This document shows, in pieces, positions 2,252 through 22,370 of a stretch of 64,000 nucleotides of DNA (position 1 is its first letter; each line of letters starts with the position of its first letter). The notes below the pieces were generated by a model that had not been told where the DNA came from, did no database searches, and saw nothing but the letters and a program-made list of their open reading frames with translations. Both the position numbers and the translations under genes were made by a program. The stretch lies in IMG/VR virus record IMGVR_UViG_3300018405_000012; one strand, given 5' to 3'. This DNA comes from an uncultured virus (IMG/VR IMGVR_UViG_3300018405_000012). Lineage: Duplodnaviria > Heunggongvirae > Uroviricota > Caudoviricetes.

Positions 2252-3403
2252 CTATACTTGACTGTATTTACCTAGGACAGTCAGAACCGAGATGACTTCA
2301 GGATCGTGCTCATCATGGTACAGTCGCTTAAGCCGATCAGCTACCAGGTGCCCGATGTTAGTCGGGGTGATGCTGATAGGCTTCAAGGCTGGCTGTCTAT
2401 CCTGGATAATCGCAGCGTCTTCCTGAGTCTTCAGCTCGTCCATTTGGGTACTTAGGACAAACTGCGGGAAGCGACGTCGGACATCCTTGATGCCATGTTG
2501 AACCACAGACCCACGGGTGATAAGCAGGCGAAACCGGGACAGATCAGGACAATCTTCGTACGACTCGAGTAAGGCAATCACTGCCTCAGTCGACATCTCG
2601 CGACAATCGAGGGTCTTATAGATCCGAGCACCTGTGTTCTCCACAAACCAGTGGTAATTACCGGATGGAGACAGACAGGCACGGTAGTGGCCTTTGGGAG
2701 ATTCCTCACCGTGTGAGAGTCGGTCAAAGGAACCCTGGGCCAGAATCTTACCGCCGCGCTCAGAACGGATGTGCACGTGACCGATGGTGATGTAGCTGCG
2801 CACAATGGACATGTATTGTTCACTGTTGTGGTTTTTGACTGACTCCACAGGCAGCTGATAGTCAAATGAGCCGTGCATGCAGGCCACATCCACCTGAGAC
2901 ATCCCATGGATACCTAACAGCTCCAGGGTCTGTTGCCAGGTCACCGATGCGTCAGCATTCCATTCGTCAGGGACATACAGGACACTTAGCCCACCCAGCT
3001 CGTCGATCACCTCGATGGACAAGGTATCGACATACTTAAGGTTGGCTTTGATGTGCAGCGAATTGTTGACGTTGACAAACTGCTTGGACTGACGCCAATC
3101 ATGGCTGGGGGTGCCTTCCAACACCCGAACAATGATGTTGTGTTTGACGCACAGTTTCAGTAAGTCAGCGATCCATTCCTGGATCGCATCTACCTCGTCC
3201 TGAGGCAGGTTCATCAGCCGGTCAAAGACATCTCCGGCGAAGAACAGGATATCCAGCTTGGCGGTGTCCGCATTATCGGGAAAGGCTTTTCGCAAATTGT
3301 CGATAATGTGGTACGTACTGGTGCGCGGATGCGCCAAGTGGATATCTGAGATGGACGCCATCGTAATTTCAGATGGGTGCGAGGTCGTCTTCGTCGATTT
3401 CAT
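2252..3403 (-). CDS. sbcD: SbcD/Mre11-like metallophosphoesterase nuclease
   Basis: SDIH, AGDVFD, GTPSHD, MHG and GHVH motifs. Confidence 0.9.
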   Translation of the reverse strand: MKSTKTTSHPSEITMASISDIHLAHPRTSTYHIIDNLRKAFPDNADTAKLDILFFAGDVFDRLMNLPQDEVDAIQEWIADLLKLCVKHNIIVRVLEGTPSHDWRQSKQFVNVNNSLHIKANLKYVDTLSIEVIDELGGLSVLYVPDEWNADASVTWQQTLELLGIHGMSQVDVACMHGSFDYQLPVESVKNHNSEQYMSIVRSYITIGHVHIRSERGGKILAQGSFDRLSHGEESPKGHYRACLSPSGNYHWFVENTGARIYKTLDCREMSTEAVIALLESYEDCPDLSRFRLLITRGSVVQHGIKDVRRRFPQFVLSTQMDELKTQEDAAIIQDRQPALKPISITPTNIGHLVADRLKRLYHDEHDPEVISVLTVLGKYSQV

Positions 3404-3959
3404 CCATGGTGTTCCGAGTGGAGGAAGCGGGTTGCTCCTCCTTTACAGGACCGAGCGCCGCTTCGATAGCTTTGGCCTGGTCGCCGAACAGGCGTTCCAG
3501 TGGGATGTTGTACCGACGGTAGATCTGAAGCCACATCCTGCCGTAGGCAACCTCAATTGCTTCGGCTGGGGTGAAGTTGATGGCCATCAGACGCTGAACG
3601 AACCCGTTGATCACAGAACCGGGATGCTCGGTGGTAATCTGGGCTTCGAACTGGGCGGTGATCTCTCCGATATCGGTACCAGGTTGGGCATCGAGTGATC
3701 GAATGACCATGGGGGTCTGGGAGATCAGCGGCGGTACGGTGAAAAGAAGCTTGCTGGGGTCCGAATCGGCGACCACATCGATCATGCGGTTCGGATGACC
3801 TGCTGCTGCGACATAGATCGAAACGTCGCGCTTTCGCCCGTCTTCCGAGGGGATCAGGTGAGGCAGGAGACGACGAACAAAGTCCGATTCACGTAATCGG
3901 GCGTTGTTCTCGTAATCCATGGCTTCCAGACGTTCGAAGTCATCGGAGTTCAGTTGCAT
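3369..3959 (-). CDS. Hypothetical protein
   Basis: 196-aa ORF, GAGG RBS, acidic C-terminus. Confidence 0.8.
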   Translation of the reverse strand: MQLNSDDFERLEAMDYENNARLRESDFVRRLLPHLIPSEDGRKRDVSIYVAAAGHPNRMIDVVADSDPSKLLFTVPPLISQTPMVIRSLDAQPGTDIGEITAQFEAQITTEHPGSVINGFVQRLMAINFTPAEAIEVAYGRMWLQIYRRYNIPLERLFGDQAKAIEAALGPVKEEQPASSTRNTMDEIDEDDLAPI

Positions 3960-8037: not shown

Positions 8038-9948
8038 TTAGAACGACGAACCGCGACCGAAGCCGTTGCTCACATGGCTGCGCAGGCTGCGCTGATCGCC
8101 ATTAACCACACGACGGCTGTTCAGCAGACCGTGGGTCAGATCGCCACCACGGAAGTCGCGAATGCGAGTGTTGCCACGCAGACGACGAGCACCGAAGGTG
8201 AAGTGAGCTTGACGCTGATCGATGTTGATCTTGCAATCGGCCACCGACAGTGCCAGCGCTTCGATGAATTGCGGGTTGATGAAGGCCAGGTCGACGTAGC
8301 GGGAGAACTTGACGTTCTGCTGCAGGGCGCCGGTCAGCTGGTCGAACTGCTCGGATACGCGGATTTCCACGTCCAGGTCAGTGCGGTCGATCACGTCCTG
8401 ATAACGCAGGGCGCTTTCACCACCATCGTTCGGGTTCTGCGCCATCCAACGGAGCAGGTCCCATTCACGCAGATCGCGCTCGTTGCCCTTCTCGTCCAGC
8501 CAGGTACCGGTCAGGTAACGGGCACCGGACATCACGAGTGGGTTTTCTACGCCCAGCTCTTGAGCACGACGGCTGAAGTTGCCCGAAGTCAGGCGGTCAG
8601 CGTAGTCGTACAGACGGCGAACAGCTTCGCGGTTGGCCGAAGTGTCGTCTGCAGCATCCAGCAGCAGGCTGGTCAGCCAGCTGTTGTCGCCACCTTCTTC
8701 CAGCTCGATTGCGTATACCAGGTTTTCATCGACCAGACTGAAGAAGTACTGACCCCACTTCTCTTCGTCCAGCGAACCACGGTTGTCGAACACGATCGGT
8801 TGCTGATCTTCATCCGGGCCGAGAATGTTCAGCAGACCGCTGTCGCGAGCATCGATCTCACCACGGGCAACTTCACCCGGCAGGAAAGTACGGGCCCACG
8901 CTTGGTTCTTGGAGATCACCGAGGACGATGCCAGTGCCAGGAGCAGGAGCTCCGGGGTGATGGCGTTGCCGCTGGTGTCCATGCGGTTGATGATGTACGT
9001 CGGGGTGAAGTACGGCTGATCGCGACGACGGTCACGAGCCCAACGCTCTTCGTTCTGCGGCGGGGTGTACACGATGTTCATGTAACCACCCAGGTTGGCC
9101 AGAGGCACGGTGACGTTCTGGTCGCCCTTGCGAACGGTACCTGCAACCGATACCGCGATGTCACTGCGGCGAGGCAGGCCGTCGGCGGATACGCTTTCAC
9201 GACCGGACATGTCGACGTTGATCTCGAGGGTGGACTGCTTGTTGAGCCACTCGAGGCTGAAGAACATGTCGTTGCGGTACAGCTCGTTGTACATCGAGGA
9301 CAGAGCCGCCTGCGCGTAGAAGATGACCTGACGCGCTTCGGTAGTTTCCGGATCGTTGAAGTCGACCTTGCGGTCAACCACACGCCAGCCGCCACGGATC
9401 ACTTCGACGGAACGACGGGACTGGTCGAATGCCTTCTTGACGATGTCGTCGATGAGGGCGAGGTACGACTCGGTCACGTAATCCGAAGCGATGATCGGCA
9501 GCGGGTAGGTGCGATGGTTGATCTCGACGTTGCGGATCGGGGTTTCGTCGCTCAGCGTGCCTTCCAGCACCAGCGAGTGAACCAGTACCTTGGTAACGCC
9601 CTGATCTTCGATCGGGTACGCCAGGATCACCGAGGAGATGCTGACGTTGTTTTCCTGACCGTCCAGACCCAGCACTTGGATCTTGGTCAGGTCGATGGCA
9701 GCGGCACCGGCTACTTGACGCTCGGCCGAGAACCAGAACTTAGCGGCCTTGATGGCGTTGACCAGGGATTCACCGCTGGTGCGACGGGACATCGGGCTGC
9801 CGAGCAGACGGTTGATATCCAGCAGACCAGCGTTCAGGACCGGGTTTTCCTGAGGGGTCGGACGGGACGAGCGGCTGTTCGCCTGTTCGCGGGACGGCTC
9901 CTGCGCCTGCGAGTTGTTGCTGTTGTCGTGGCTATCTTGAACTGCCAT
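8038..9948 (-). CDS. chmA: Chimallin, major phage nuclear shell protein
   Basis: About 636 aa, strong codon bias, AAGGAG RBS, canonical position directly upstream of nvRNAP beta'. Confidence 0.88.
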   Translation of the reverse strand: MAVQDSHDNSNNSQAQEPSREQANSRSSRPTPQENPVLNAGLLDINRLLGSPMSRRTSGESLVNAIKAAKFWFSAERQVAGAAAIDLTKIQVLGLDGQENNVSISSVILAYPIEDQGVTKVLVHSLVLEGTLSDETPIRNVEINHRTYPLPIIASDYVTESYLALIDDIVKKAFDQSRRSVEVIRGGWRVVDRKVDFNDPETTEARQVIFYAQAALSSMYNELYRNDMFFSLEWLNKQSTLEINVDMSGRESVSADGLPRRSDIAVSVAGTVRKGDQNVTVPLANLGGYMNIVYTPPQNEERWARDRRRDQPYFTPTYIINRMDTSGNAITPELLLLALASSSVISKNQAWARTFLPGEVARGEIDARDSGLLNILGPDEDQQPIVFDNRGSLDEEKWGQYFFSLVDENLVYAIELEEGGDNSWLTSLLLDAADDTSANREAVRRLYDYADRLTSGNFSRRAQELGVENPLVMSGARYLTGTWLDEKGNERDLREWDLLRWMAQNPNDGGESALRYQDVIDRTDLDVEIRVSEQFDQLTGALQQNVKFSRYVDLAFINPQFIEALALSVADCKINIDQRQAHFTFGARRLRGNTRIRDFRGGDLTHGLLNSRRVVNGDQRSLRSHVSNGFGRGSSF

Positions 9949-10015
9949 GGTGTACTCCTTGGAGAGATTTCGTTGTTTACTAGGCCTAGTGAACATCGTA
10001 GTGATATTCACGTGG

Positions 10016-18271: not shown

Positions 18272-18481
18272 TTAGCTGAAGCTGGTGAACGAATTGTCCG
18301 GATTGACCTTGTTCAAAGCAGGGCCGTGGATTTCGAAACTATATCGGGTTTCTTGAAAAAGGTGATGCCATTCACCGGTCTTGCAGCGATGACATTCATA
18401 CCCGATTCCAGTCTGTGGGGTGGCATGGATGGAATCAGCGTTACCGCAACGCTCACATTCAAAGACGGAACACATTCTCAA
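18272..18481 (-). CDS. Small Zn-ribbon protein
   Basis: CERC...CHRC motifs. Confidence 0.7.
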   Translation of the reverse strand: MRMCSVFECERCGNADSIHATPQTGIGYECHRCKTGEWHHLFQETRYSFEIHGPALNKVNPDNSFTSFS

Positions 18482-18537
18482 ATCTCCTTAAAGTTGAGGG
18501 TGTCTATATCAACTTCATTATGTATGGCTTCAGAAAT

Positions 18538-18786
18538 TTACTGGTAATTTGGAACGAGGATACGCTGCTGCCATGGCATCACTTGTTGATCAGGTTCGAG
18601 ATCGTCGCATTCGTAAATTCCCACCACCCGATTGTCGTCGGTGACGTACGCGTATTCACAACCGGGAAACTGACGCAGGGCCTCAGCAATATCCAGTGCA
18701 CCAATGGTCGACGAAAAGGGTTGGCTGGTGTGTACCAGTCGTTTCTTGGACCGTTTTTCTACGTCTTCTGGTGCTGAAGTATTCAT
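18538..18786 (-). CDS. Hypothetical protein
   Basis: 82-aa ORF with AAGGA RBS. Confidence 0.65.
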   Translation of the reverse strand: MNTSAPEDVEKRSKKRLVHTSQPFSSTIGALDIAEALRQFPGCEYAYVTDDNRVVGIYECDDLEPDQQVMPWQQRILVPNYQ

Positions 18787-18801
18787 AAGAGGTCTTCCTT
18801 A

Positions 18802-19503
18802 TCAGAGAGGGAGGGTGGTCGGCAAGCTACCGTCTTCGGCATTCTCGAACTTCAGAAGCTTACGGGCATATGCTTCAGCTTCCTCCAGAGTCTCGGTCGG
18901 ATAGACGTTGACTTCGAGTCCTGTCCAGTCGGTGTATTCGCGCTGAAACGCCTCGTGCTCATGTACACCGTATTCCAGTTGGTGGCAGTTGAGCTGAATG
19001 TCGTAATCGGTGTCGTCACTGAAGCCGATGATCGACAGGTCGGATTCAGGTTCAGTAATCTTGAACGCGCCAGTCTTGGGTGGTGCGACCCGGAAACTGG
19101 GGTCTTGCACGCCCTTGAGCCAGATAGGTTCGGGGAAATTGCTATTGAAGCAGTAGTGGGTGACGTTCTCCTCGAATACGGTCACCTCGGTTGCTTCCGG
19201 CCAGTACAGCTTGACATGCTCGATTTCTTCCACATACGCCATCAGCATGTTGGCATCGTCAGACATGCGGACGATCCAGTAAGGATGGTACAGTGGCCAT
19301 GCAATTGGGCGGGAATCGTGGATGTAGGCCTCATTGTTCAAATGACGCGGTGGCACCGGCGACAGGAAACCTACACGCAGCAAGTTGATCTTACCGAAGA
19401 CGGGTTTATGAATGAACGCCTGCTCCTGATGGGGCTTGGTGATGAGTTCGTACATCGGCTTACCGTCAACGCCGAGGATAATGTTGGGATCTTGCTTGGA
19501 CAT
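18802..19503 (-). CDS. Two-domain protein with a C-terminal degenerate (inactive) GIY-YIG domain
   Basis: Ungapped hand alignment to the GIY-YIG at 20549-21316; start MSKQDPN with GGAG RBS. Confidence 0.7.
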   Translation of the reverse strand: MSKQDPNIILGVDGKPMYELITKPHQEQAFIHKPVFGKINLLRVGFLSPVPPRHLNNEAYIHDSRPIAWPLYHPYWIVRMSDDANMLMAYVEEIEHVKLYWPEATEVTVFEENVTHYCFNSNFPEPIWLKGVQDPSFRVAPPKTGAFKITEPESDLSIIGFSDDTDYDIQLNCHQLEYGVHEHEAFQREYTDWTGLEVNVYPTETLEEAEAYARKLLKFENAEDGSLPTTLPL

Positions 19504-19530
19504 GGGTGAGTCTCCGTAGATGTGGGATGG

Positions 19531-19564
19531 CGGCATAACGACAGCGGGATTGCTCCCGCTGTCG
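19531..19564 (-). terminator. Hairpin plus TATGCCG downstream of phuZ
   Basis: CGACAGCGGGA-TTGC-TCCCGCTGTCG preceded on + by CGGCATA. Confidence 0.65.
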
Positions 19565-19572
19565 TGTATTAC

Positions 19573-20556
19573 TTAGAGCACGAGTCCGGTAGTGGACACG
19601 TCATCGCTGTCGCTGAAGAACGAGACAGCTTGAGAGCGGGTTTTACGCTGCATCTCCATCTCCTTCTTCAGGCCTTCGAGTTCCTGCGCCAGGGCGCCGA
19701 AGGAGTGGTTTTCGATACCAAAGAACAGGCTCTTCGACGTTTGAGCAAACGACGGCATGAAGCCATCGCAGCTGTAAGGCACGAAGACATTCGGCTGAGG
19801 GTCATCCTGCTCGCGCTTGAGGTAAGCGGCCGAGATCGGGTCGGTCAGGACTTTCTCGAACTGATCGATGTCATCGAACAGGTGGATACGAGCCAAGCAC
19901 GCCGGGATATCGGTCGACTTGTTGAACTGCAGGAAGCTGGCGATGTCGGCAGTGTCCAGGCCGTGGTTACGGCGGCTGCACAGGATTGCCAGGGCATTGA
20001 TCATCAGATGGGCTTCACGGTCGATCGAGGAGCGCGGCACATTCGGACGGTTCATGCCGAAATGGATAACCACCGGCTTGTTGGTCATGCGACCGATGGC
20101 ATCGAGCGACTTGATGGTACCGATGGTGTTCTCGGCAGTCTTGATGGACTCGTGAGAACCGGTGACGATACCAACGGCCTGGTGACCGTCTTCCAGCAGC
20201 TGTTTGAGGATCAGCGGGCCAGCGACCGAACCCGTACCACCCGACGCCGTGAAGATCACGATGTTCATGTCAGCCGGCGCGAACTTACGCAGGATGTCAG
20301 GCACTGCCTTGGCAATGACCTTGTCGTTGCTGTTGCGGATCTTACCGGAACCGTCGAGGTCCTTGAACAGCCAGGTGTTGTTTTCCAGACCTTCGGTGAG
20401 GTTGGAATCGGAGGTGTCGACGAAGGCCACTTGGAAGTCAGCAATATCTGCCGAATGGCCTGGGGTCAGGTAGTCACGACCGATGTTTATCCCTCCACCT
20501 CCGCAAGCAAAAACCCTGATGGTTCCGACCGGACGAGCACTGAGACCGTTATGCAT
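19573..20556 (-). CDS. phuZ: PhuZ phage tubulin
   Basis: CGGGGINIG T1 loop, DTS, DGSGK, SGGTGS tubulin signature; C-terminus ...GLVL. Confidence 0.95.
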   Translation of the reverse strand: MHNGLSARPVGTIRVFACGGGGINIGRDYLTPGHSADIADFQVAFVDTSDSNLTEGLENNTWLFKDLDGSGKIRNSNDKVIAKAVPDILRKFAPADMNIVIFTASGGTGSVAGPLILKQLLEDGHQAVGIVTGSHESIKTAENTIGTIKSLDAIGRMTNKPVVIHFGMNRPNVPRSSIDREAHLMINALAILCSRRNHGLDTADIASFLQFNKSTDIPACLARIHLFDDIDQFEKVLTDPISAAYLKREQDDPQPNVFVPYSCDGFMPSFAQTSKSLFFGIENHSFGALAQELEGLKKEMEMQRKTRSQAVSFFSDSDDVSTTGLVL

Positions 20557-21316
20557 GGTGTTTTCCTTCTGTGGTTTCTTTGAGTTTTTGACGCTTGAGT
20601 CTGGCACGTAGAGCATCTGGTTTAATACCTAATTGTCTAGCAGCCTCAGCGTTACTTGGGTAAGTAACGCCATTGGCAGTTACTGGTTTTGCGTTTATCG
20701 TTGCCACAAGGGCTCTGAATTCCGGGGACTGTCTGTGTGCAAGGAGTCGGTCACGACTGTCTTCATCTTGCCATGCCTTGGTTCTTGCTGCAGCTAGCTT
20801 TTCTAACTCATCAAGTGATCGCTCGCGCCCAACGTGCTTAGCCCTGAATTCAGGATCTTTCCACAGTTCCTTAGAGCGCTCAGACTGCACCTGCCTGGCT
20901 GCCTCGTCAGCAAACTGGCGCCGAGCAGCTTCGCTCAGTTTCTTCTTGGCCTCTTCAGGGACCGGGACACCTAAGCCTGTTCGACGAGCATCGGTAGAGA
21001 CGTTAAACAGTCTGCCTTGACTATGGCCGCTGTCAAGCAAATGCTGTTCAATGTCAAGAGCTTCTTCTTTACTCTCAGCCTTAATGAAACCCAGGTCGAA
21101 ACGAGGATCGTCATCATAAGCCTTTTGTAAATTTGGGTTCCGGTGAGTCCCGTCTTTCAAACGGTTCTTGTGCTGATTAATGCGTGTGTAGAGGTTGTGC
21201 GTGCTGCCGACATATGCCCTGCCCGTCTTCTGATGAGTCAGGACATAAGCCGCTGGAAATGAATGTTCTTTCCTGGTCGGTTTGCCGCTCAATGGGGCAA
21301 GAACTATGTCGTTCAT
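20549..21316 (-). CDS. Free-standing GIY-YIG homing endonuclease
   Basis: AAYVL...YVGST...R...H...E catalytic pattern, NUMOD3-like region, C-terminal HTH (YPSNAEAARQLGI). Confidence 0.9.
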   Translation of the reverse strand: MNDIVLAPLSGKPTRKEHSFPAAYVLTHQKTGRAYVGSTHNLYTRINQHKNRLKDGTHRNPNLQKAYDDDPRFDLGFIKAESKEEALDIEQHLLDSGHSQGRLFNVSTDARRTGLGVPVPEEAKKKLSEAARRQFADEAARQVQSERSKELWKDPEFRAKHVGRERSLDELEKLAAARTKAWQDEDSRDRLLAHRQSPEFRALVATINAKPVTANGVTYPSNAEAARQLGIKPDALRARLKRQKLKETTEGKHHA

Positions 21317-21319
21317 TGC

Positions 21320-21391
21320 TTATTCCTCGATGACCCCGCACGAATAGATACGCACTTGGCCGACAGGACGAGTAGAAAGACCTTGAGACAT
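21320..21391 (-). pseudogene. Orphaned original phuZ N-terminus (MSQGLSTRPVGQVRIYSCGVIEE*)
   Basis: 23-codon ORF matching the PhuZ start MHNGLSARPVGTIRVFACG; own GAGGA RBS. Confidence 0.85.
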
Positions 21392-21452
21392 CTTGTGTTT
21401 CCTCTTTGGGGTTGAGCGATTAGTTGATGAAGCTATGATCGCTAGCATATGG

Positions 21453-21480
21453 ATAATGTGTGTCCATGAAATATTTGAGT
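21453..21480 (-). promoter_or_regulatory. Putative promoter of the phuZ operon, ACTC-N16-CACATTAT
   Basis: Recurring 28-nt motif. Confidence 0.55.
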
Positions 21481-21523
21481 GGCCAATCGTGTGTATGGGT
21501 TCTTAAACAGACAGGAGACAACT

Positions 21524-22351
21524 ATGGTCGATCATCTATCGCGGGCACTTGACACCATCAAGTTTGAAATCCCGCCAGAAGTGTTGCGCTACACCTTTTC
21601 CCCGACCCGTTATGACCCGTCGAAGAATGGTCTGATTCGCGACTATAGCACTGGCGTCAGCATGGACACCATCATTCGTCGCCAGATCATTGAGGGTAAG
21701 GTGATGATCGATATCAACCTCTGTTCGGGGGTTGAGGTGTTCATCCCGATGAAAAATGTCAAGAGTGAGCGGGTCGATAACTGGACAATGGTCTACACCA
21801 TCGATAAAGAACTGACTCAAGGACGAAGCATCACCGAAGTCTATGGACTCAGTTATGGTCAAGGCCATACTCTCGGAAATGTTGGGGTGATCTCCGAAGA
21901 CCGTTCGATGGTACTGGAAGCGGCTGCCGGGCTCATGCAGTCGAATGCCGCCTGGACACAGGTGCAGTCGGCGTACTGCACACTGGTAGCAGATAACGTG
22001 GTCATGGTCACCAACATGAACCGGGTGCCAGGCATTATGTACCTGCGCTGTATGGTTGCCCACGATCCGAACCTCGCTAACCTCCCCATGAGCTATTCGG
22101 ATGCTTTCTCGGAATTGTGCATCCTGGCTACCAGGGCGTACATCTACAACCGTACCATCATTCCATTGGACGAAGGTGCAATCCGAGGCGGTGCTTCGCT
22201 GGGCCGGATTCGTGAAGTCGTCGACTCGTATGCTGACGCTGCCACAATGTACAAAGAATACCTGCGGGATGAATGGCGCAAGCGTGGGGTGATGGCAAAC
22301 CGCGATCAGCATCGCAGACTCCTTCGCTATACTGTTGGGTCCCGGAGATGA
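21524..22351 (+). CDS. Conserved chimallivirus protein (possibly virion-associated)
   Basis: Start MVDHL with AGGAG RBS; 275 aa. Confidence 0.75.
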   Translation: MVDHLSRALDTIKFEIPPEVLRYTFSPTRYDPSKNGLIRDYSTGVSMDTIIRRQIIEGKVMIDINLCSGVEVFIPMKNVKSERVDNWTMVYTIDKELTQGRSITEVYGLSYGQGHTLGNVGVISEDRSMVLEAAAGLMQSNAAWTQVQSAYCTLVADNVVMVTNMNRVPGIMYLRCMVAHDPNLANLPMSYSDAFSELCILATRAYIYNRTIIPLDEGAIRGGASLGRIREVVDSYADAATMYKEYLRDEWRKRGVMANRDQHRRLLRYTVGSRR

Positions 22352-22370
22352 CAAAGACCGGAAACAAAGA

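Follow-up and report, generated by a model that had tools for sequence, protein, structure and literature searches.

In the genome fragment of an uncultured virus of the class Caudoviricetes (IMG/VR record IMGVR_UViG_3300018405_000012; 64,000 nucleotides (nt), referred to as the window in the following), the phage tubulin gene phuZ is preceded by a gene for a GIY-YIG homing endonuclease and by a short second copy of its own 5' end. An earlier reading of the window made from its letters alone (the sequence-only reading) had proposed that the endonuclease entered phuZ and rebuilt its 5' end. This locus was compared with related viral contigs, representing either occupied alleles or empty, endonuclease-free alleles. 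On the minus strand, a conserved motif, a 23-codon remnant, the GIY-YIG gene and a complete phuZ follow each other in this order, and the following features were assigned:

21451..21459, minus strand: conserved upstream motif ACATTATCC, the sole copy upstream of remnant, endonuclease gene and phuZ
21320..21391, minus strand: mini-open reading frame (mini-ORF) of 23 codons, MSQGLSTRPVGQVRIYSCGVIEE followed by a stop, the displaced native phuZ 5' end
20499..21333, minus strand: inserted cassette of 835 nt, absent from the endonuclease-free relative L004
20549..21316, minus strand: GIY-YIG homing endonuclease gene (255 amino acids, aa) with Pfam and PHROG matches
19573..20556, minus strand: complete phuZ (327 aa), a phage tubulin with Tubulin and TubZ_C_2 matches
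20488..20556, minus strand: new, foreign phuZ 5' end (nt 1-69), MHNGLSARPVGTIRVFACGGGGI, with 27 mismatches to L004
20521..20810, minus strand: putatively exchangeable block comprising the C-terminal DNA-binding half of the endonuclease, the phuZ leader and phuZ nt 1-36

The mini-ORF at 21391-21320, the GAGGA ribosome-binding site, the GIY-YIG gene and the overlap of its stop with the start of a complete phuZ had all been described before, and each of these features was confirmed from the sequence. GAGGA is located 7 nt before the endonuclease ATG (21316), and the phuZ ATG (20556) overlaps the endonuclease TAA (ATGCATAA). The mini-ORF is composed of phuZ nt 1-58 (21391..21334) and of a further 14 nt that belong to the cassette and end with TAA. 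The cassette contains a 17-nt left spacer, the endonuclease gene and a foreign leader with phuZ nt 1-58, and its length equals that of the interval 21391..19573 minus phuZ. The leaders of the remnant and of phuZ were found to be alike in an alignment, as had also been claimed. For the window PhuZ, the Pfam family Tubulin scored 36.6 bits (cutoff 33) and TubZ_C_2 22.9 bits, which is under the cutoff of 27; the latter family reached 65.2 bits for the PhuZ of the more distant locus L032.

Insertion point of the cassette

The endonuclease-free contig L004, whose PhuZ is 97% identical to that of the window, features the same leader followed by an uninterrupted phuZ starting MSQGLSTRPVGQVRIYACGGGG / MSQGLSTRPVGQVRIYACGGGGINIG, which is the allele that had been predicted for relatives lacking the enzyme. 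BLAST aligned window positions 22357-21336 with L004 3035-4056 (97.75% identity over 1022 nt) and positions 20509-18802 with L004 4048-5755 (96.72% over 1708 nt); the alignment stops at 21336 and restarts at 20509, with an overlap of 9 nt. The remnant is identical to the first 56 nt of the L004 phuZ at 53 of 56 positions, and the leader shows 1 mismatch in about 50 nt. Because the mini-ORF aligns together with the leader to the L004 phuZ start, it does not represent a chance match, and the 835 nt between 21333 and 20499 are therefore regarded as inserted after phuZ nt 58. Judged from the aligned codons, the insertion point corresponds to the Cys-Gly-Gly codons of the glycine-rich N-terminal loop, which, as far as tubulin and FtsZ structures are a guide, is presumably the T1 GTP-binding loop.

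No close copy of the endonuclease was found in the L004 genome (94% complete), the best match being located elsewhere with 34% identity. The L004 loop codons (GGC GGT GGC GGC ATC) suit the codon use of the rest of the gene and differ from what a deletion between the two copies of the window would leave. Since these codons are native-like and not the product of a deletion, the window lineage likely gained the cassette, rather than L004 having lost it.

Recurrence of the layout in other phage lineages

Searching IMG/VR with PhuZ yielded 8 loci, and an endonuclease profile led to L032, a member of another clade. In L008, with a PhuZ 75% identical to that of the window, the motif is followed by a remnant (MSTGLSTRPVGTIRIFACG continued by DNTGV and a stop), a GIY-YIG gene encoding 232 aa and, behind a 32-nt spacer with its own ribosome-binding site, a phuZ starting MTTTGLSTRPVGTIRVYACGGGG. 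The endonucleases of L008 and the window are 73% (tblastn) or 76% (MAFFT alignment) identical. L009, the near-identical counterpart of L008 (97-98% identity on both sides), has no GIY-YIG gene in phuZ, and its phuZ begins with the remnant-type MSQGLSTRPVGTIRIFACGGGG. Between L009 and L008, phuZ is about 97% identical overall from nt ~20, but mismatches cluster densely in its first ~45 nt, and foreign positions were seen up to approximately nt 66.

The PhuZ and the endonuclease of L032 are 37.5% and 46% identical, respectively, to those of the window. This locus comprises a remnant (MEVGKVRLYGCGG continued by DFKC..), a GIY-YIG gene overlapping the remnant ORF and a phuZ that starts MKEQNASVGTVRIFGCGG and is joined to the endonuclease gene by an ATGA overlap. 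L032 has four relatives without the endonuclease: phuZ starts with MEVGKVRL(F/Y)GCGG in L039 and L040, as in the L032 remnant, and with MSDKNVSGVGTVRIFGCGG in L037 and L038, as in the L032 new module. The leaders of L037/L038 and L039/L040 are identical and are followed by two unlike phuZ 5' ends within the first ~50 nt (MSDKNVSGVGTVRIF.. versus MEVGKVRL..), which may be footprints of past cassette gain and loss.

The remnants break after TGCGGGG in the window and in L008 and after TGCGGTGG in L032, i.e., at the same position within 1 nt. A motif scan covering the window and 17 loci, of which L005 and L011 may be one phage sampled twice, detected two copies of the PhuZ N-terminal motif wherever the endonuclease is intact (all three loci) and a single copy in the remaining 15 loci. 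The mini-ORF, whose occurrence in endonuclease-free relatives had been named as a point to be checked, was present in the three contigs encoding an intact endonuclease and in none of the 14 endonuclease-free contigs.

The occupied allele was also recovered in contigs of four public sequencing runs from three studies. A 59,252-nt contig of run X4 covers positions 19500-22355 with 74 differences and 5 gaps, and contig pieces of runs X5 and X3 bridge both junctions, although X3 may share its sampling effort with the likely source of the window. In run X7, a 16,986-nt contig is 96-97% similar to the window, and positions 20521-20810 (290 nt) are replaced by 266 other letters; the same block differs between the window and L008. 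As the occupied allele recurs in contigs of four runs, the layout is no assembly artefact. No joint skipping the cassette was seen in these contigs, which is uninformative on co-existing empty alleles, since contigs drop rare variants.

In 10 of the 12 clade-1 alleles, the short form ACATTAT precedes the first ATG by 67-72 nt, the exceptions being Pseudomonas phage pPa_SNUABM_DT01 (-49) and L024 (-248, with an endonuclease remnant in between). In the occupied alleles of the window and L008, the motif precedes the remnant, and neither the endonuclease gene nor the new phuZ. Based on this position, ACATTATCC is presumed to be the phuZ promoter element. One extra ACATTAT copy is present at window 19484-19478, just inside the ORF 18802-19536 downstream of phuZ, and may be due to chance or represent an internal start signal. 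In the window (21320-21316) and in L008 (3252-3258), remnant ORF and endonuclease are in frame, parted by TAA and one Ala codon (TAAGCNATG); if the stop were read through, the endonuclease of these two loci would gain 19 PhuZ residues, whereas the two ORFs are not in frame in L032.

Origin and codon usage of the new phuZ 5' end

Compared to L004, phuZ of the window shows 27 mismatches in nt 1-69 and 2-4 per 100 nt beyond; the rate is slightly higher in nt 96-174, where 8 mismatches occur. Most of the window variants in nt 1-69 are shared with the natural alleles L005, L006, L007 or L009, for example AAC GGT CTC AGT with L006 and CGT CCG GTC GGA ACC ATC AG with L009. By these matches, the new phuZ 5' end is of foreign origin and similar to 5' ends occurring naturally in other lineages (L006/L009 type). 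In its last 10 nt (TCGTGCGGGG), the window remnant corresponds to the donor type (TGC GGG G) and not to the L004 type (TGT GGC G), which implies that the donor was already split and that the left crossover occurred within the remnant. Remnant and new copy are identical at 35 of 58 positions in the window, 39 of 49 in L008 and 21 of 33 in L032.

Regarding codon usage, the unusual codons claimed for the new segment were indeed observed: the G+C content at third codon positions (GC3) is 0.43 in the first 23 codons of the window phuZ and 0.76 in the rest, and AGG, ATA, AGT, GGA and GGG are concentrated in these 23 codons. The feature is not specific, however, because a low GC3 in the first ~22 codons was found in 16 of the 17 alleles, including endonuclease-free ones (0.33-0.55 versus 0.68-0.81), and codon use is consequently not diagnostic of the cassette. 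The notion of a recoded N-terminal module did not hold; it is instead a natural-looking foreign 5' end of the L006/L009 type, and deliberate recoding as deduced from codon usage was rejected in view of the generally low 5' GC3.

The endonuclease and its mobility

The endonuclease was assigned to GIY-YIG (PF01541) with 37.2 bits (cutoff 22.6; 37.8 bits for L008 and 33 bits for L032) and to phrog_314, 'homing endonuclease' (9.4e-17). It is I-TevI-like and consists of two parts, a nuclease domain at about aa 24-96 and a putative helix-turn-helix (HTH) at about aa 208-244. The matches to I-TevI_DNA-bd (PF20987) are all under the cutoff of 27, with 17.9 bits for the window, 16.8 for L032 and 23.7 for the endonuclease remnant in L024. 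Against the PDB, the profile of the endonuclease family matched the I-TevI catalytic domain 1MK0 (E 2.3e-6) and the DNA-binding domain 1I3J (E 0.11), and a phmmer search of the PDB with the single endonuclease gave no matches at E ≤ 0.1. Residues Y24, Y35, G37, R45, H49, H58, E90 and N105 are invariant across 11 relatives. In the 1MK0 alignment, Y24, YVGS, R45, H49, H58 and E90 stand opposite the catalytic residues of I-TevI.

An exact 20-mer from the endonuclease 5' end was found among viral contigs only in that of L008, and the endonuclease relatives L033, L035 and L036 are not adjacent to a phuZ. Paralogous GIY-YIG genes were detected with six matches in the L008 genome and four in that of L032, versus one distant match in L004; among their positions are L008 1328-2068 and 7594-8331 and L009 1498-2238.

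Over its first 504 nt, the endonuclease gene of the window shares 91.5% identity with that of L008, whereas the phuZ core reaches 76% and the DUF7484 gene, which adjoins the locus on the other strand, 62-84% per 50-nt bin. The proportion of synonymous differences (pS) amounts to 0.29 for the endonuclease and 0.49 for phuZ. The higher identity and the lower pS indicate that the nuclease half moved between the lineages after their divergence. The ratio of the non-synonymous to the synonymous proportion (pN/pS) is 0.09 (10 non-synonymous and 33 synonymous differences), indicating that this half was kept functional and, by this measure, is under purifying selection. In near-identical pairs, the cassette is present or absent at one fixed site (window/L004 and L008/L009, both with 97-98% identity).

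Exactly at the block 20521..20810, the identity between window and L008 drops from about 92% to 50% or less, and the DNA-binding halves of the two enzymes differ, as the proteins diverge sharply after residue ~168. Database relatives of the endonuclease are modular in the same way: P0005 is only 51-52% identical overall, yet bears the HTH sequence of the window, and P0002 and P0003 combine a window-like nuclease half with an L008-type HTH. A 54-aa ORF in L024 (1477-1638), located between motif and phuZ, corresponds only to an L008-type HTH (the 23.7-bit match to PF20987), and P0003 represents an intact protein with the same terminal residues. The L024 ORF represents a decayed endonuclease, or possibly a retained DNA-binding protein. 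The foreign tracts end 8-11 nt past the junction, namely at nt 69 in the window and at about nt 66 in L008.

Proposed mechanism and alternative explanations

Taken together, we consider it likely that a mobile, intron-less GIY-YIG cassette became lodged after nt 58 of phuZ and replaced the 5' end of the gene without splicing. In the cassette, a short spacer precedes the endonuclease gene, which is followed by a foreign phuZ leader with the first ~58 nt. Through its insertion, the native 5' end is displaced and persists behind the motif as a remnant of 23 codons, while a complete phuZ with its own start codon is recreated, so that PhuZ would begin with MHNGLSARPVGT and not with MSQGLSTRPVGQ. 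The foreign replacement of the first ~20 codons would keep phuZ working, with no need for RNA or protein splicing. One transcript would be driven by the single upstream motif, on which the ribosome-binding site and the stop of the remnant (TAA, 3 nt, ATG) would pass ribosomes to the endonuclease gene and the stop/start overlap would then pass them to phuZ. In L032, coupling would be brought about by the endonuclease ATG inside the remnant ORF and the ATGA overlap to phuZ, and phuZ of L008 would be served by its own ribosome-binding site.

In a co-infecting relative, the enzyme is proposed to cut the endonuclease-free phuZ at or near the loop codons. Cutting at or near the junction is suggested because the foreign tracts end 8-11 nt right of it in two pairs and because the donor-type tract in the window remnant comprises 10 nt or less. 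Repair would copy the cassette, with promoter and remnant serving as left arm and phuZ downstream of nt ~58-69 as right arm, and the divergence of the two phuZ 5' copies would slow its precise loss by repeat recombination. Within this scheme, the new copy may be immune to its own enzyme, translation of the genes may be coupled, and the cassette may bring a competitive benefit or serve as weapon or gene drive. The sequence-only reading is thus supported in its core, whereas the resistance of the own allele and the role as gene drive or weapon were not supported in the form given there.

Several observations weigh against this interpretation. The position of the cleavage site was deduced from the junction position and the tract ends only. 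The loop sequence of the new phuZ copy is intact, and a comparison of the window, L008, X4, X5, X7 and the empty alleles revealed no consistent immunity signature. At the junction, the L008 copy reads GCG TGC GGG GGT, the same as the empty alleles, and the private synonymous changes of the window (GCT, GGA; TGC GGA) do not occur in X4, X5 and X7, which have TGT GGG at nt 54 and 57. Furthermore, 11-14 nt just past the junction differ between window and L008 next to endonuclease sequence of about 92% identity, the leader region differs throughout between L008 and L009 (76% identity), and an HNH gene present in the same interval of L009 obscures where the L008 event begins on the left. All relatives of the cassette locus are metagenomic contigs; among the GenBank phage matches listed, no cultured phage has this endonuclease next to phuZ, and in 8 GenBank phages with both genes these are located about 49 kb or more apart.

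The private synonymous changes at the junction were accordingly rejected as an immunity signature, being inconsistent among the occupied alleles. The new module of L008 also contains several private synonymous changes in nt 10-33. I-TevI cuts some 25 bp from its binding site, and, as a speculation by analogy, the changes in L008 could matter if the enzyme studied here likewise cuts far from where it binds. The cleavage preference of I-TevI is CNNNG; such a motif at the junction (TGC+GGN+G) proved uninformative as a clue, since most alleles contain it, among them occupied ones.

Alternatively, the duplication could be a scar without any role: a free-standing endonuclease would have gained the remnant once by illegitimate recombination, the layout would have been inherited, and the real target would lie elsewhere. 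This would be in line with free-standing GIY-YIG genes being usually located between genes, as described for the T4 Seg family and SegB, with the endonuclease-derived sequence between motif and phuZ in L024 that lacks a remnant, with the uptake of HNH genes into the interval between the DUF7484 gene and phuZ (L009, L024), and with the missing immunity signature among the alleles compared. However, the same junction codon recurs in three lineages in spite of an endonuclease identity of only 46-76%, the cassette is exactly what separates the members of two near-isogenic pairs, in which the foreign tracts stop shortly past the junction, and the donor-type tail of the window remnant implies a donor that was already split. 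L024 is more simply explained as a deletion derivative, since the intact P0003 ends in the same residues. A mere scar thus appears unlikely. Even less probable is a domesticated endonuclease (or, in L024, the HTH alone) that has ceased to home and instead regulates phuZ or attacks competitors or the host as a nuclease. Its strong purifying selection (pN/pS 0.09), its presumed expression from the phuZ control region, the HTH-only ORF still open in L024 and a known competitively advantageous endonuclease of a chimallivirus (PMC12908238) would fit such a role, but the presence/absence in 97%-identical phages and the horizontal movement of the nuclease half mark an active mobile element; moreover, homing and a domesticated role are not mutually exclusive.

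An intein or a self-splicing intron, of group I or another class, might also have been missed, in which case the remnant would be exon 1, joined past the duplicated part. In phages, introns often harbor homing endonucleases of this type, a mobile intron is known from chimalliviruses (PMC12908238), and remnant and endonuclease gene share a frame in the window and L008. On the other hand, a scan of 19400-21700 (2.3 kb) against Rfam at E ≤ 10 returned no intron family and three unrelated matches with E > 2. The non-coding flanks of the endonuclease ORF measure 17 nt before and -4 nt after it (32 nt after it in L008), leaving no room for a ribozyme core, and an in-frame intein is not possible because the remnant ends in TAA (21322-21320). 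The endonuclease gene has its own start and stop, and each of the three lineages has a complete phuZ equipped with its own start codon and ribosome-binding site. The earlier statement that neither an intron core nor an intein is visible was thereby borne out, and splicing is considered extremely improbable.

For the splicing-free cassette, a further step can be proposed. The DNA-binding half and the replacement phuZ 5' end might form one exchangeable block of specificity and immunity, by which rival variants would overwrite each other using the nuclease-coding half as left arm, amounting to a natural phage-to-phage gene drive. We put this forward tentatively, as a possibility with the odds rather against it. 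If true, endonuclease traffic would continually rewrite the start of phuZ (first ~60 nt) in two or more chimallivirus clades, and the drive would act wherever two genomes share a phage nucleus and would be aimed at the GTP-binding loop of the spindle tubulin.

Comparison with known mobile elements

Inside conserved coding sequence, homing endonucleases are generally held to depend on an intron or intein, and otherwise to be confined to positions between genes. The phuZ cassette would represent a third route in a virus, in which the 5' end of a gene and its start codon are replaced at the DNA level. The closest parallels are the mobile ORF elements (mORFs) of fungal mitochondria, described for atp6 of Allomyces macrogynus, atp6, atp9, cox2 and nad3 of Glomus sp., atp9 of Rhizopus and cox2 of Mortierella; compared to the gene of a relative, their inserted pieces are 64-81% and their native pieces 91-98% identical (PMC3630166). 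Partial duplications of atp6 and cob flanked by GIY-YIG or LAGLIDADG ORFs are likewise reported in another study (PMC6279837). Like mORFs, the phuZ cassette comprises an intron-less endonuclease ORF inside a gene that is kept whole by a foreign terminus, the native terminus being left as a remnant, and the native piece matches a close relative, whereas the inserted piece is divergent. Unlike the cassette, mORFs replace the 3' (C-terminal) end, often in frame, and reside in mitochondria; the endonuclease gene lies downstream of the inserted terminus in mORFs and upstream of the repaired gene in the phage. Because the 5' end is replaced, the phuZ cassette must supply a leader and a start codon. 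It is a mirror-image variant of the mORF principle, which would be extended to phages and to 5' ends.

Intron-less homing has been attributed to SegB and SegF, free-standing endonucleases of phage T4 (SegF is cited in PMC12908238). Similar to the T4 Seg endonucleases, the cassette features a free-standing GIY-YIG gene, presence or absence among related phages and co-conversion of flanking sequence, here after a presumed double-strand break. The Seg genes, in contrast, sit between genes and cut a neighbor at a distance, and no end of a host gene is duplicated or replaced. SegG and MobE are further free-standing homing endonucleases of T4. With I-TevI of the T4 td gene, the phuZ enzyme shares an N-terminal GIY-YIG domain with the same catalytic residues and, as proposed, the targeting of conserved host-gene codons, and its C-terminal HTH matches weakly; I-TevI, however, is housed in a self-splicing group I intron, and no intron was detected at phuZ.

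Among nucleus-forming jumbo phages, an intron-encoded homing endonuclease of PhiPA3 acts against PhiKZ by targeting an RNA polymerase subunit gene, the competition having been shown experimentally (PMC12908238). It sets a precedent for homing endonuclease action between co-infecting chimalliviruses, but differs from the phuZ cassette in being intron-encoded and experimentally supported. The sections cited from the same review of nucleus-forming phages describe only intron-encoded endonucleases and this one case of competition (PMC12908238). In fractured genes (PMC2677866), a homing endonuclease gene lies between the halves of a split intein; as in phuZ, an endonuclease gene is found inside a coding sequence without loss of function. 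Protein trans-splicing is required in those genes, whereas phuZ is restored as a single complete ORF at the DNA level. The literature searched, which did not cover subscription journals, contained neither a description of an endonuclease within phuZ nor one of a phage cassette that replaces a 5' end.

Genetic exchange between nucleus-forming jumbo phages is thought to be limited by compartmentation. The phuZ locus would provide a concrete, testable case of endonuclease traffic between such phages and would account for the mosaic first ~20 phuZ codons among otherwise near-identical genomes. It also calls for caution in annotation, as short 'uORFs' (upstream ORFs) preceding endonuclease genes can be displaced gene ends.

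Genomic context of the locus

Two further features of the window were of relevance for the classification of the phage and for the comparison of the flanks:

8041-9996: chimallin gene (PF25677, E 4.6e-36)
21479..22351, plus strand: DUF7484 gene (PF24302, E 3.2e-83), divergent from phuZ, left homology flank

The window also encodes a divergent family-B polymerase, phiKZ gp28/gp29-like proteins and an S80 protease and, together with chimallin, these indicate a nucleus-forming jumbo phage. Within the GenBank phage set, the closest cultured relative is Pseudomonas phage pPa_SNUABM_DT01, whose PhuZ-like homologue is 57% identical. A megablast search of positions 19500-21600 against GenBank phages gave no match, and the PhuZ scan of metagenome contigs returned one irrelevant locus with 30% identity.

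The DUF7484 gene is syntenic in L001, L004, L008, L009, L024, L028 and L029. Between this gene and the phuZ upstream motif, L009 (3151-3921) and L024 (587-1363) carry an HNH endonuclease gene (phrog_374, E 4.1e-73; no Pfam match), which in L024 occurs in addition to the GIY-YIG remnant. Because of these HNH genes, the DUF7484/phuZ interval is regarded as a second landing site for homing endonuclease genes. In pPa_SNUABM_DT01 (L001, MW735835), the same interval upstream of phuZ contains an unrelated ORF of 250 aa (3171-3920; phrog_19333, no Pfam match).

Two additional differences between the window and L004 were noticed in the surroundings. Downstream of the gene after phuZ, window positions 18476-18801 (326 nt) correspond to 694 unrelated nt in L004, and at 22358-22367 L004 has 180 extra nt past the DUF7484 stop. 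Near each of the two differences, 26-nt inverted matches are located (window 22412-22387 and 18263-18238).

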